64,000 bases of DNA. Source: a virus. Under the pieces are notes generated by a model. That model was not told where the DNA came from and made no database searches. It saw only the letters and a program-made list of their open reading frames with translations. A program made the position numbers and the translations under genes. Shown here one piece after another: positions 12,025 to 28,900 of the stretch. The stretch spans positions 1,353-65,352 of IMG/VR virus record IMGVR_UViG_3300046051_000044; one strand, written 5' to 3'. The first letter of the stretch is position 1, and each line of letters opens with the position of its first letter.

Positions 12025-14511
12025 GTTTCAGACGAACCCTTGTGGGGTTGAAGGGACCTGAACGTGCCACTCGCCGTATCGTATCTCGATACCGTTTCAG
12101 ACGAACCCTTGTGGGGTTGAAGGGAGGCGTTCAAACGGGCCGAGCAGCAGGTCGGAGTGTTTCAGACGAACCCTTGTGGGGTTGAAGGGAGAAGTATTCC
12201 GGCGTCGAGTCGGGGAAGGACGGGTTTCAGACGAACCCTTGTGGGGTTGAAGGATCGCTGACGCCCCGGTAACGCTGCTCGCGGTCGCGTTTCAGACGAA
12301 CCCTTGTGGGGTTGAAGGGTTTTTCTGATGTTTCATGGCCGAAAAAGTGACCGTGTTTCAGACGAACCCTTGTGGGGTTGAAGGGGGGTCTTGGACAGGC
12401 GTACCCGTACGCGATCCTTAGTTTCAGACGAACCCTTGTGGGGTTGAAGGCCGCCATCGTTTGCCGTGAAAAACACCACCCGCTGGTTTCAGACGAACCC
12501 TTGTGGGGTTGAAGGATGGCCTCGACGGTCGGCTCGAACGCCTCCGCCATGGTTTCAGACGAACCCTTGTGGGGTTGAAGGTTTGTCGATGACCGTCACC
12601 GGGACGTGGTCGTGCAGGCGTTTCAGACGAACCCTTGTGGGGTTGAAGGCCGCTTCAGTTCCTGGGCAGCCTTCCGATTACTGATCGTTTCAGACGAACC
12701 CTTGTGGGGTTGAAGGGACCGTGACGAGATGGACGAGGTGGACGCTGACGAGGTTTCAGACGAACCCTTGTGGGGTTGAAGGGTCCACGGCAACACGGGC
12801 GTGGGCAAGACGCTCGCGTTTCAGACGAACCCTTGTGGGGTTGAAGGGGTAGGCACATCCCGCCGTAGGGCCACCCGCCTTTGAGCCCGTTTCAGACGAA
12901 CCCTTGTGGGGTTGAAGGGACACACTGGTTTCTGGAAGATCGAGAGACGGAGGGTTTCAGACGAACCCTTGTGGGGTTGAAGGCGCAACGCGGATTCGCG
13001 GGAGATACGCACCCACGGCGTTTCAGACGAACCCTTGTGGGGTTGAAGGTCGCGACAGGCGTTGACCAACCTGTCGACGAACATGGTTTCAGACGAACCC
13101 TTGTGGGGTTGAAGGTCGACGTCTGCCGTGACGCTCACGTTGCCGTTCGAGTTTCAGACGAACCCTTGTGGGGTTGAAGGGATGATATCGCCCTCAGTGA
13201 TCGGGCCGTCGATCGATGTTTCAGACGAACCCTTGTGGGGTTGAAGGTCGACCTCGACCATGGCGCTCTCGAACTCGCGGGCGGTTTCAGACGAACCCTT
13301 GTGGGGTTGAAGGCTCCTTGTCGAGGCGCTGGCCGTTCTCGCCGACGGGCTGGTTTCAGACGAACCCTTGTGGGGTTGAAGGGGTTCGAGCCGGGCGATG
13401 GTGACGTCGACGCTCACGAGCGTTTCAGACGAACCCTTGTGGGGTTGAAGGAGCTCGAAGGGGCCGGATCGAGAGGCGGGCGAGTGGCGTTTCAGACGAA
13501 CCCTTGTGGGATTGAAGGGAATGGGAATACCGTCCAGTCGACCATCGACGGGTCGTTTCAGACGAACCCTTGTGGGGTTGAAGGGACGGTGATCAGCCGG
13601 ATGGGTGGATTAGATCATCGTTTCAGACGAACCCTTGTGGGGTTGAAGGAGCCGAAGCCAGCGACACCACACGCCGGGAAGTGCTGGTTTCAGACGAACC
13701 CTTGTGGGGTTGAAGGAGAGGTGGCGCCGAATGATCGACGCCCCGTGGTGGTGGTTTCAGACGAACCCTTGTGGGGTTGAAGGCCACACTGCTCGTATCC
13801 AGTCCAGGATCCTCGGCCGGTTTCAGACGAACCCTTGTGTGGGGTTGAAGGCTTGAAGGCACTCAGGTCATCCAGTAGGCGCCCGATGTTTCAGACGAAC
13901 CCTTGTGGGGTTGAAGGGCCTCGCCCTGCGTGATCGGCCGGACGCGGACGTAGTTTCAGACGAACCCTTGTGGGGTTGAAGGCCCTTGAGCGTAATGACG
14001 TCCTCTCGAATGAACGGAGTTTCAGACGAACCCTTGTGGGGTTGAAGGGCCGTGTCCGTTGTTATTGTCGCGTCAATATCGCCCGCGTTTCAGACGAACC
14101 CTTGTGGGGTTGAAGGGATGCGTGATCCCGGCGTCGGCTATGACCCCGACTAGTTTCAGACGAACCCTTGTGGGGTTGAAGGGAAGAAAACCCCGTAGGT
14201 GGCTTCACCGATGATGAAGTTTCAGACGAACCCTTGTGGGGTTGAAGGCGCGACAACGACACGGAGTGCATCGCAATCGAGGTAGTTTCAGACGAACCCT
14301 TGTGGGGTTGAAGGCGCGCGTACATCCCTGTCGACGGCCACCGCGATGAGAGTTTCAGACGAACCCTTGTGGGGTTGAAGGGAGTTTGGGCTGGGATCGG
14401 CGGTCGAGTTCCGCGCGTTTCAGACGAACCCTTGTGGGGTTGAAGGGGGTAGCGGTCGAGATACCGCCGGGCGATTGTGAGGTTTCAGACGAACCCTTGT
14501 GGGGTTGAAGG
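12025..14511 (+). CRISPR. CRISPR array, 38 repeats / 37 spacers (35-41 nt), repeat GTTTCAGACGAACCCTTGTGGGGTTGAAGG
   Basis: Counted by hand; all 38 copies end in GAAGG. Repeat 23 has GGGATTG; repeat 28 has a TG insertion. Differs from the canonical haloarchaeal I-B repeat only at position 30 (C to G). Confidence 0.98.
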
Positions 14512-14544
14512 TGGTTCATTTTCTTGTTTCGGAGTACAGCGAAG

Positions 14545-25919: not shown

Positions 25920-25924
25920 CTGTC

Positions 25925-28900
25925 TTACAAGTGTGCGTTAAGCTCGTCGTAGATCGCTTCGGCCGTGTCGTCCGCGTCCTCGACGCCGTGGAATTCGTTG
26001 TTTTTCACGACGATCTGCGGGGTGGCCCCGCCGCCACCCGTGTCGGCGGTAACTTGCTCAAGCGCGCCGGAGAGTGCGCCCGCGAGGACGTCCTCGCCCT
26101 CGGCGTTCAGCGGGATGACGGCCTCGTCGTCGCCCGCCTCGCCGATGACGGCGGTCGTCGGTTCGGTGACGATGCCGCCGTGGGCGAAGCCCTTGGTCGC
26201 GCCACTCGGCCCGTCGACACCGTCGCCGTTGGCCGCGTCCCGACGGTTCCGGTCGGCCCGCGCCGCCGCTTGGGCCGCCGAGTCGGCCGCCGACTTCGCA
26301 CTCGACAGTGCGTCGGAGGCCTGACCCGCCGCGCTTTCGGCGGCGCCGATGATCGACGACGCGATGCTTTTGACGGTCGACAGCGCGCTCTCGAACGCCG
26401 AGACGACGTCGCCAAGGAACGATTCAGCCTCCGAGACGACATTGCTGCCGAACGTTGACCAGTCGTCCAAGAAGCCTGAGACAAACGACGACAGGGCCGA
26501 CCGGATGTCGGAGAACATCGTCCCGATGATCCCGCCGCTCCCGCCGCCGATGAGTTGCGACGCCAAGTTCGTGGCGGCGCTGATGACGGCGTCGATAAAG
26601 CTTGACTGGAAGAACGAGAGGAACGACGAGACCCACGACTCGGTGAAACTCCGAATCGCGCTAAACATCTCAGGGATGATCGACCCGCCGATGAGCGTCT
26701 GACGGAGGAATTCAAAGAATTCGATGAAGTTCTGTATGAACTCATTCCGTAGCCAGTCCAGAAAGCCACTGCCCCACTTCTGTGCGAAGTTGAGAATACC
26801 GTCGAACGTCCGTTTATAGAACTCGGCGACGGCCGTCCACGCCTCTTGCCAGTCACCCTGGATGACGTTAAGCGTGACGCGAATCGCCGTCGCAATCGCA
26901 TCCAGCGTCGTGTTCAGGAACGAGCCGATGGTATCAAAGGCGAATCTGACGATGGTGACGACTTCGTCGCCCCACGCCCGCCACAGTCCCGCGATGACCG
27001 TCAGCGCCGGGCCGATAATCGTCTTGATGACGTTCATCGTCGTCCGCAGGCGATCCGTCAGGACGTTGTAGGTCTCGACGACTTCGCGGAGAATCGCCGC
27101 GCCGTGCGTCTGCCACAGTTGGAGAATTGAGCCGAGAATCGGCTGGACGACGCTCGTTCGGAGTTCCGCAAGGACATTTCGAATGACTGTCAGGACTTGT
27201 GTGAAGATACGGCGGGCGTCCGCGACGAGGGGTTGGATCTGCGTAGTCCAGACCTGCCGGACGCGCGTGAGTTCCCGCTCGGTGACGGTCCGGATGTTGA
27301 GGATGTTGTTCGTCCAGACCGTATTCAGCGCCGTAATCGCGCCGGCGGCCGTCGTCGTTGGCGTCGTTAATCCTGCGATGGCGACGCCGACTTTTCCGAG
27401 CGTCTGGATCGTCGGCCGGCCCTGCGCGTCGAGATAGCCGAGTTTCTGCCCGAGCGTCTGGATCGGCTGGAGGAGTGGCCTGATTGCGCCGAGGACGGCC
27501 TGGCGGTGTTGCTGCCACAACTGCGCCATCTGGCCCAGTGCATCGCGGACGATGCCCTCGACTGTGCCGAGGGCATCGCGGAAGGGTTTCGGAAGTCGTT
27601 GCCGGAGCGTGCCGGGCACCTGGACGAACGCCGAGAGGCCTTGCTGGAGTGGTTGCTTGAGTGCCGCGAGCCCCTGCGAGACGGCTTGCCTCGCCCGGTC
27701 GAACATCAGCGAAAACATCCGGGCGAATGCCCCGATGTTGCCCTCAACGGCAGCGTTGAGCGCGGAGAGGCCGAGGGCGAGGACGTCCTTCATCGTCGCC
27801 ATCGCATCGCGGAGCGGTTGCGGGAGGCGCTTGGCCTGGGCTGCGACGGTGGTCTGGAGTCCGATGAGCCCCTGTTTGACGACGGGTTTGATCGCTGTGA
27901 GCCCGGTCGCGACGGCCTGCTTCGCCTGGCCGACCATCATCGTGAACTTCTGGGCGAACGCGTTGGCATTCCCCGCAATAAGTGCATTCAGTGCAGACAG
28001 CCCCTGCCCGAGTGCACCCTCTACCGCAGTCATGAATTGGGTGACAGAGGCGGTGACGCGCTGGCCGTGGGCCGCCCAGGCGGCTTCGAGTTGTCGGAGG
28101 GCTCCCCGAATCGCTTGGAAGGCCGACGTCATGCGCGCGATGAGTCGGTCGGTGACAAGGGCGATCACAGGTTCGAGCGCAGCTTCGACGCGAGCCTTGA
28201 ATCGGTCGAAGGCATCCCCCGCCGCCGCGACGGCCGGGCCGAAGACCTCGCGGAACGTGGTCGCCGTCGCCGCGGCCTGCTGGCGCGTGTAGAGAAGGAC
28301 GGCCTCCACCATCGTTCGGATCCCGGCGAAATTAGTCTTGAACGCCGCTGCCAGTCCGAGAACGGCACTCGTGAGAGCTGCCGCAGGCGCGAGGACAGCA
28401 CTCGTCGCGCCAGCCATCGCCGTCAGCGCCGGCGTGGCCGCAGAAATGGCCGGGTAGAGCCCAACGAACGCCGTTGCCAGCCCGCCGACGACGCCGACGA
28501 GGCCAGCGATGACGCCCGCCATGCCGTTGGTCGCAGAGTTGAGGTCAGCGAAGCGGTCGACCAGTCCACGGAGCGCGCGGATGGCGTCCGTCACATACGG
28601 CAAGAACACGTCGCCAGTCTGGATCGCAACCGCGAGAATCGACGATTTGAGTTGTTTGGCCTGCTTCTTGGCCGTATCCATCGCCGCCTCGAACTCGCGT
28701 TGGAGCGAGGCGTTCTCCTTGAAGGCCGTCTTGGAGGCATCCAGGTTCTGATTGAGCGTATCCATGTTCGTCGACAGGTTGGTCAACGCCTGTCGCGAGA
28801 ACGAAGTGAGCGTCGAGCGAAGCCCCTCGGCATTTACTCCCCCTTCCTTCATCGTCGTCGCCATCCGCTTGATGACCTCGACCGGGGAATTGTCCCGCAT

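Follow-up and report, generated by a model that had tools for sequence, protein, structure and literature searches.

A haloarchaeal type I-B CRISPR array with spacers matching the tail genes of a tailed-virus module on the same plasmid-like contig

The record IMGVR_UViG_3300046051_000044 of the IMG/VR database is a contig of 80,898 bp, and the stretch analyzed here comprises its bases 1353–65352 (64,000 nucleotides, hereafter the window, whose numbering is used throughout). According to our analysis, the window carries a CRISPR array of the haloarchaeal type I-B, and four of its spacers match tail-module genes of a tailed-virus module located on the same contig, each of the targets being preceded by 5'-TTC. 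The case is, in our view, probably one of self-targeting spacers directed against a resident provirus. It is a natural instance of a known phenomenon and no surprise to the specialist; current understanding is not challenged, since prophage self-targeting is common and its tolerance by haloarchaea is documented.

Results

Spacers matching the carrier contig

An exhaustive ungapped scan of all 37 spacers on both strands reproduced exactly the coordinates and identities of the four same-contig matches reported in the original prediction, which had been made from the sequence alone (Table 1). The presence of TTC before all four protospacers, in the orientation of the spacer, was likewise borne out. 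This trinucleotide accounts for 1.3% of those in the contig, which gives P ~3e-8 for its occurrence at four of four sites. TTC is the canonical protospacer-adjacent motif (PAM) of the type I-B system of Haloarcula hispanica (PMC4066796) and is among the functional PAMs of Haloferax volcanii (PMC6546412).

When all 37 spacers were shuffled 20 times, no match with 10 or fewer mismatches was obtained, and the remaining spacers of the array had no match above background in the 81-kb contig. Spacer 19 was considered as a distant match to the tape measure gene (24/36 at 29433–29468, with a TTC PAM) and was not counted, being indistinguishable from noise. Scores of this kind were common (123 matches with at most 13 mismatches, versus 25 in the shuffles), an excess that we attribute to the periodic composition of coding DNA, which inflates the real count. 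Beyond the contig, the whole array gave nothing against the INPHARED phages, nor did words from spacers 16, 32, and 23 against the JGI metagenomes or IMG/VR.

The gene targeted by spacer 16 had been labeled as a tape measure gene, and this was confirmed by a PHROG profile (E=1e-48). The label of a tail fibre for the 447-aa gene targeted by spacer 23 could not be established: profile searches gave no family match for 24576–25919, and the name is a guess from its position beside the tape measure gene. The targets of spacers 23, 32, and 36 all lie in tail-module genes without a known family function. All four sites are deep inside the open reading frames (ORFs), at gene nucleotides 856, 513, 1304, and 828 for spacers 16, 23, 36, and 32, respectively. 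The 447-aa gene also contains three tandem copies of a 108-nt unit (24888–25259, 65–100% identity), just upstream of the spacer 23 target.

Pattern of mismatches and protospacers

Each of the six mismatches between the spacers and their targets affects the third base of a codon and leaves the amino acid encoded by the target gene unchanged; by chance alone, the probability of this is about (1/3)^6. This indicates that the spacers were copied from functional, diverged variants of the genes, rather than from this exact DNA with random decay thereafter. With distance from the leader, the mismatch counts run 0, 1, 3, and 2 for spacers 16, 23, 32, and 36, and such growth fits a virus lineage that was evolving while it was sampled.

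All four protospacers fall within 8.36 kb (n=4; P=0.005 over the contig and 0.02 within 14.5–61 kb), and three of them are on one strand. Their clustering would fit primed uptake. Amplified self-targeting in prophages has been ascribed to priming (PMC7708048), and spacer uptake in Haloferax is strand-biased and distance-dependent (PMC7521656); the clustered, mostly one-strand protospacers found here resemble both patterns.

According to the seed rule established for Haloferax, pairing is required at positions 1–10, with position 6 exempt (PMC6546412). A mismatch falls within this seed in each of spacers 23, 36, and 32, which are therefore predicted by the Haloferax rules not to drive cleavage; spacer 16 has none, and it alone is predicted to be able to interfere. 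The seed mismatches were also considered as possible escape mutations, and this was rejected (P=0.14 once mismatches are limited to third-codon positions).

The array and its leader

The repeat is 30 nt long (GTTTCAGACGAACCCTTGTGGGGTTGAAGG), with two variants among its copies, a G>A at 13489 and a TG insertion at 13820, and the spacers are of 35–41 nt. All 38 repeats match the Rfam family CRISPR-DR24 on the + strand with 39.7–47.5 bits (gathering score 35), and the repeat belongs to the GTTTCAGACGAACCCTTGTGGG.TTGAAG. family. The identical 30-mer, with the same uncommon G at its end, is also found in arrays, chromosomal or on scaffolds, of Haloparvum sedimenti, Halomarina halobia, a Halorubrum strain, and an unclassified Halobacteriales metagenome-assembled genome. 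When aligned, the 165 nt upstream of repeat 1 show a core in common with the leaders of two Haloparvum sedimenti arrays and of Halomarina halobia; its invariant part, shared with these three host leaders, reads TCGACCCC.GGGGG ... GGTCGA.GG ... AAT. Judged by the family and strand of the repeat and by the leader core, this is a true type I-B array of haloarchaea, and it reads from left to right, with spacer 1 as the newest. The end of the next gene lies 34 nt from the last repeat. The exact repeat was not found in other IMG/VR contigs, and none of the spacers from five host arrays sharing it match this contig.

All 38 repeats end in G (GAAGG), where C is usual. The same ending is the majority form in the Halomarina halobia array (8/9 repeats) and occurs sporadically in the Haloparvum and Halorubrum arrays, so the variant is not unique to this element.

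Spacer 9 (12582–12619) matches the ParB/RepB gene of the Halomontanus rarus plasmid NZ_CP135527.1 at 32/38 positions, where the PAM is TGG, and also a 198-nt contig from the sister sample X2 at 37/38. The array thus also remembers a ParB-bearing element that is absent from this contig, as expected of an ordinary immune record.

Search for cas genes

No cas gene was detected in the 81-kb contig by scans with Pfam, NCBIfam, and PADLOC, which covered most ORFs of at least ~130 aa. A complete type I-B locus was thus not found: the families cas6b, cas8b, cas7, cas5, cas3, cas1, cas2, and cas4 have no member adjacent to the array. The record is classed as linear, with a CheckV completeness of 77%, and cas genes may lie elsewhere.

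Organization of the contig

Although the original prediction spoke of the virus, and the genes targeted are indeed tail-module genes, the contig is not a plain virus genome. Its gene content is that of a mobile, plasmid-like haloarchaeal replicon with an embedded tailed-virus module. The left operon is syntenic with the Salinigranum rubrum plasmid NZ_CP026314.1 (39 kb) and the Halomontanus rarus plasmid NZ_CP135527.1 (76 kb). At the right, the VirD4/TrwB-like protein is 53–55% identical to proteins of Haloferax volcanii pHV1 and of an H. gibbonsii plasmid; the two genes beside it have 31–33% identity to pHV1 genes, and genes of a "transfer complex" are present in the cluster. A complete head-tail virus module is thus seen embedded between backbone modules of plasmid type, and the array, together with a TnpB insertion sequence, sits at the left plasmid/virus junction. 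Tetranucleotide usage gave no clear separation of the modules.

Contigs with related head modules are 40–48 kb long and encode an integrase; a virus part of about 14.5–61 kb here fits their size. The element could be either a plasmid carrying a provirus or a hybrid of virus and plasmid. A plasmid-like replicon bearing an orphan array and a tailed provirus is the simplest reading, and mobile elements are known to hold about half of haloarchaeal CRISPR DNA (PMC6546412).

Close relatives of the virus module were looked for. A megablast search of 14.6–39.5 kb against phage records gave no match, and for the tail proteins no relative was found in IMG/VR or among the JGI metagenome contigs. The highest identity reached anywhere was 63% for a tail protein and 65% for the portal. 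The contigs with related portals have only the head module in common with this one, so these relatives could not define the borders of the virus or show an array-free ancestor.

Probable linkage of array and targets on one molecule

The element was found in a single sample: the halite-metagenome run X1 is its only holder among the indexed public runs, and no RNA run contains the sequence. The spacers and protospacers lie on one 80.9-kb contig. Contigs of an independent k=31 assembly of the same run were placed on the window. One of them, 13 kb long, runs from the upstream DNA into repeat 1 (to 12050), and another from the last repeat (14482) to 15175. The listed contigs then overlap end to end over 15237–29400; the 61 bases at 15176–15236 are covered by none of them and have a normal bin depth (~20). 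The depth is ~17 upstream and ~20 downstream of the array. The joined ends and the even depth indicate that both joins of the array with its flanks are real and that both sides occur in equal abundance. A k=31 assembly breaks at 30-nt repeats, so the interior of the array was not bridged and the inner order of the spacers is that of the original assembly.

Table 1. Positions of the array, its self-matching spacers, their targets, and the surrounding modules in the window.
Feature	Position	Strand	Remarks
Plasmid-type operon	1–9731 (starts before the window, ~-316)	+	Gene-by-gene synteny, 30–40% amino acid identity
TnpB gene, IS200/IS605-type element	10199–11398	-	Pfam Cas12f1-like_TNB; beside the leader, transcribed away from the array
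CRISPR leader	11860–12024	+	Conserved haloarchaeal type I-B leader core, TCGACCCCCGGGGGG ... ATTGC.GGTCGAYGG
CRISPR array	12025–14511	+	38 repeats and 37 spacers; type I-B repeat family
Spacer 16	13050–13085	+	36/36 to 28763–28798 (-), no mismatch
Spacer 23	13519–13554	+	35/36 to 25372–25407 (-), mismatch at position 4
Spacer 32	14117–14152	+	33/36 to 20441–20476 (-), mismatches at positions 10, 25, 28
Spacer 36	14382–14416	+	33/35 to 22276–22310 (+), mismatches at positions 1, 13
C5 methylase	15277–16134		Right of the array
PD-(D/E)XK nuclease	17660–18358		Between the C5 methylase and the tail genes
Complete head-tail virion module	18559–44081	-	Tail genes, tape measure, capsid, Mu-F-like, portal, large terminase
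Protospacer of spacer 32	20441–20476	-	In a 327-aa tail-module gene, 20320–21303 (phrog_18555)
Protospacer of spacer 36	22276–22310	+	Antisense within a 507-aa tail-module gene, 22090–23613
Protospacer of spacer 23	25372–25407	-	In a 447-aa gene, 24576–25919, just downstream of the tape measure gene
Protospacer of spacer 16	28763–28798	-	In the tape measure gene, 25925–29653, gene nucleotides 856–891; TTC before
Major capsid	34381–35208	-	66–74% identical to PF25209 capsid genes of related contigs
Mu-F-like head protein	37013–37849	-	
Portal	37846–39732	-	
Large terminase	39760–41487	-	
Start of pHV1-type VirD4/TrwB-like transfer cluster	61168–64000 (on to ~70.6 kb)	-	Pfam TrwB_AAD_bind

Discussion

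A proposed case of tolerated self-targeting of a resident provirus

We propose that a host-derived type I-B array with an intact leader and 37 spacers, not accompanied by cas genes, lies on a plasmid-like haloarchaeal replicon that also carries, 4 kb away, a complete tailed-virus module, most likely a provirus. The lineage of the array would have met the lineage of the virus several times and would have taken four spacers with a TTC PAM from its tail module. The source variants would have differed from the present virus by 0–8% at synonymous sites, and primed adaptation probably contributed to the uptake. A member of that virus lineage would now coexist with the array. Cleavage by three of the four predicted CRISPR RNAs (crRNAs) would not be expected under the Haloferax rules, given their seed mismatches, and spacer 16 may be tolerated for one or more of three reasons. 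No active effector may reach its target, the array being an orphan with no cas gene in 81 kb; the virus may encode an inhibitor; or a single self-targeting crRNA among dozens may do little damage, which a polyploid cell would repair by recombination, as in Haloferax.

The original prediction held that a perfect self-target of this kind should be lethal if any effector cuts it. Our analysis indicates that this is too strong: self-targeting is frequent among type I-B systems, three of the four matches have a mismatch in the seed, and the tolerance documented in Haloferax weakens the premise of lethality for this group. [quoted passage not shown] A self-targeting type I-B crRNA caused no measurable harm to Haloferax volcanii under native conditions, which was explained by competition with dozens of other crRNAs and by recombination repair of the polyploid genome (PMC5435918, PMC6546412). 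Among the explanations offered in the original prediction, a silenced, absent, or inhibited effector and a recent joining of the array with its target fit best, while repression of late genes has no support.

Several points weigh against this reading. The spacer order inside the array comes from one assembly. The contig is judged to be 77% complete. The borders of the provirus are not marked: no integrase in the ORFs scanned, tRNA gene, convincing att-like direct repeat, or terminal repeat was found, so a provirus in a plasmid is deduced from the content of the module and from the size of the 40–48 kb relatives. Furthermore, the array lies exactly at the junction and could belong to the virus side. 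Finally, the presence of seed mismatches in all three imperfect matches is not above chance (P=0.14).

Alternative explanations

The main rival, which we consider unlikely, is that the array is the element's own weapon. The element would borrow the type I-B Cas proteins of its host against sibling viruses, in superinfection exclusion or conflict between elements; the matches to its own tail genes would be collateral, its own copies escaping through seed mutations. The absence of any host housekeeping gene from the 81 kb, the mobile-element modules on both flanks, and the compact layout at the end of the array would all suit this reading, as would the coexistence of two tail-fibre-like gene variants in the sample. 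Each of the three imperfect self-matches has a mismatch in the seed (seed rule in PMC6546412), although this pattern is not significant. Type I-B systems encoded by proviruses, with spacers aimed at viruses, have been described in haloarchaea (PMC12596717). However, a weapon of the element would hardly be expected to include spacer 16, which perfectly matches the element's own tape measure gene next to a functional PAM. Moreover, the number of spacers is far above that of the known virus-borne mini-arrays, no array-carrying relative was found (the exact repeat being absent from other IMG/VR contigs), and the nearest relatives share the head module only.

It is also possible, at a rather low probability, that the virus persists beside a perfect spacer in a Cas-active cell by means of an anti-CRISPR, or that the plasmid-borne array actively restrains the co-resident provirus. 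Self-targeting genomes have served to find bacterial anti-CRISPR genes, and we know of no anti-CRISPR so far that acts on a haloarchaeal type I-B system. The contig offers a concrete lead for anti-CRISPR discovery in haloarchaea, and an anti-CRISPR here, if real, would be a first for haloarchaeal type I-B, reached by the classic self-targeting route.

An artefact of assembly or of a mixed population appears improbable. The array, or the part of it that bears spacer 16, would then belong to a different molecule or cell than the virus and would have been joined to it through a shared repeat. The data are short-read metagenome data, and the same and sister samples do contain other arrays with the same repeat, seen as foreign spacers between repeats; X2 and X3 have the repeats and not the flanks of our array. 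The k=31 contigs cannot bridge the repeats, and there is no second sample with the element. On the other hand, the joining of both array ends to their flanks and the even depth make the chimeric assembly raised in the original prediction less likely, even if the interior was not bridged. We infer that an assembler word longer than the 30-nt repeat would link neighboring spacers uniquely. A split of the array would still leave spacer 36, the last but one, on the virus side.

Binding without cutting has very little probability. It would mean that Cascade, guided by these crRNAs to the tail genes, represses late transcription and keeps the provirus silent; the precedent is a general one, the repression of genes by Haloferax Cascade without Cas3 (PMC6546412), and no cas3 was seen here. 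However, the sites are deep inside ORFs and not at promoters, they occur on both strands, three of the crRNAs have seed mismatches, and the synonymous divergence resembles what past infections would leave behind rather than a set of maintained regulators.

The use of the array by the neighboring TnpB/Cas12f-like nuclease, with 5'-TTC as its target-adjacent motif, is scarcely credible. Type V effectors likewise recognize a T-rich 5' motif of the non-target strand, the tnpB gene is 630 nt from the array, and PADLOC models of Cas12f type match its protein (E=7e-42). However, the protein passes the NCBIfam cutoff for guided_TnpB (114.7 bits, cutoff 100) and falls far below that for Cas12f2 (102 bits, cutoff 450); being transcribed away from the array, the gene would be expected to have its own guide RNA at the 3' end, near 10.2 kb. 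The region of ~10209–11860 has 70% DNA identity to an ordinary TnpB element borne by a Haloarcula marismortui plasmid, and the homology extends ~460 nt upstream of the tnpB start codon (11398–11860) and ends near 11860, up to the CRISPR leader; the structured non-coding stretch of 11398–11860 is therefore part of the TnpB unit and not of the array. TnpB appears to be an ordinary insertion sequence that inserted next to the leader. A type V (Cas12f/TnpB-derived) system was rejected on these grounds: the score below the Cas12f2 cutoff, the divergent orientation, and the insertion-sequence-like unit. The repeat and leader are canonical for type I-B, and TTC is a known type I-B PAM (PMC4066796).

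Comparison with known systems

The present case resembles the prophage cases of Nobrega et al. (2020; PMC7708048) in the PAM-flanked protospacers, which probably lie on the replicon of the spacers, in the probable provirus target, and in the clustering of spacers as from priming; type I-B is among the subtypes most affected there. It differs in being archaeal and metagenomic, with an orphan array on a plasmid-like element 4 kb from the putative provirus, and in having one perfect match among four. The tolerated self-targeting of Haloferax volcanii (Stachler et al., 2017, 2020; PMC5435918, PMC7521656) shares with it the repeat family, a PAM of TTC type, and the coexistence of a crRNA, predicted in our case, with its target. 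The mechanism proposed there, in which crRNAs are diluted and a polyploid genome is repaired by recombination, would apply here as well. Their target was a pigment gene of the chromosome, in an engineered system, whereas ours is natural, has a virus module as the target, and has no cas genes found on the contig.

The CRISPR-Cas systems of type I-B in haloarchaeal proviruses and plasmids (Naki and Gophna, 2025; PMC12596717) are similar in their location on mobile elements and in their spacers against viral structural genes, tape measure genes among them. The proviruses of that study have cas genes for interference, in contrast to our contig, on which none were found; Cas proteins encoded elsewhere can serve an array that stands alone and has compatible repeats (PMC12596717). 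Matches to the carrier's own genes, present here, were not reported in that study (PMC12596717).

Our array was also compared with the virus-borne mini-CRISPR arrays that Medvedeva et al. reportedly described in 2019 in conflicts between viruses. Like them, our array lies on a mobile element, is unaccompanied by cas genes, has a leader similar to that of the host, and has spacers aimed at structural genes of close relatives. Such mini-arrays have one to a few spacers, none of which is known to match the carrier. We rejected this identity for our array, which has 37 spacers and matches its carrier in spacer 16 at 36/36.

The contig is a clean natural case from an extreme halite community, in which a type I-B array and the targets of its spacers, with their PAM, are separated by 6–14 kb on what appears to be a single mobile replicon. 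It also appears to hold a record of repeated encounters of one array lineage with one evolving virus lineage, in which the divergence is graded and purely synonymous.

Additional observations

The 578-aa gene at the end of the tail module (18559–20295) is variable in the sample. Its stretch 19033–19223 occurs in run X1 in two versions, with depths of 10.3 and 6.1, which differ at 19/191 bases. Either a local hypervariable patch or two co-existing virus strains could account for this variation.

Outside the virion module, a 222-aa protein (48975–49643, - strand) has two Pfam domains side by side in one chain, an HNH nuclease (E=1.6e-7) and an archaeal MCM C-terminal winged helix (E=3.9e-8).

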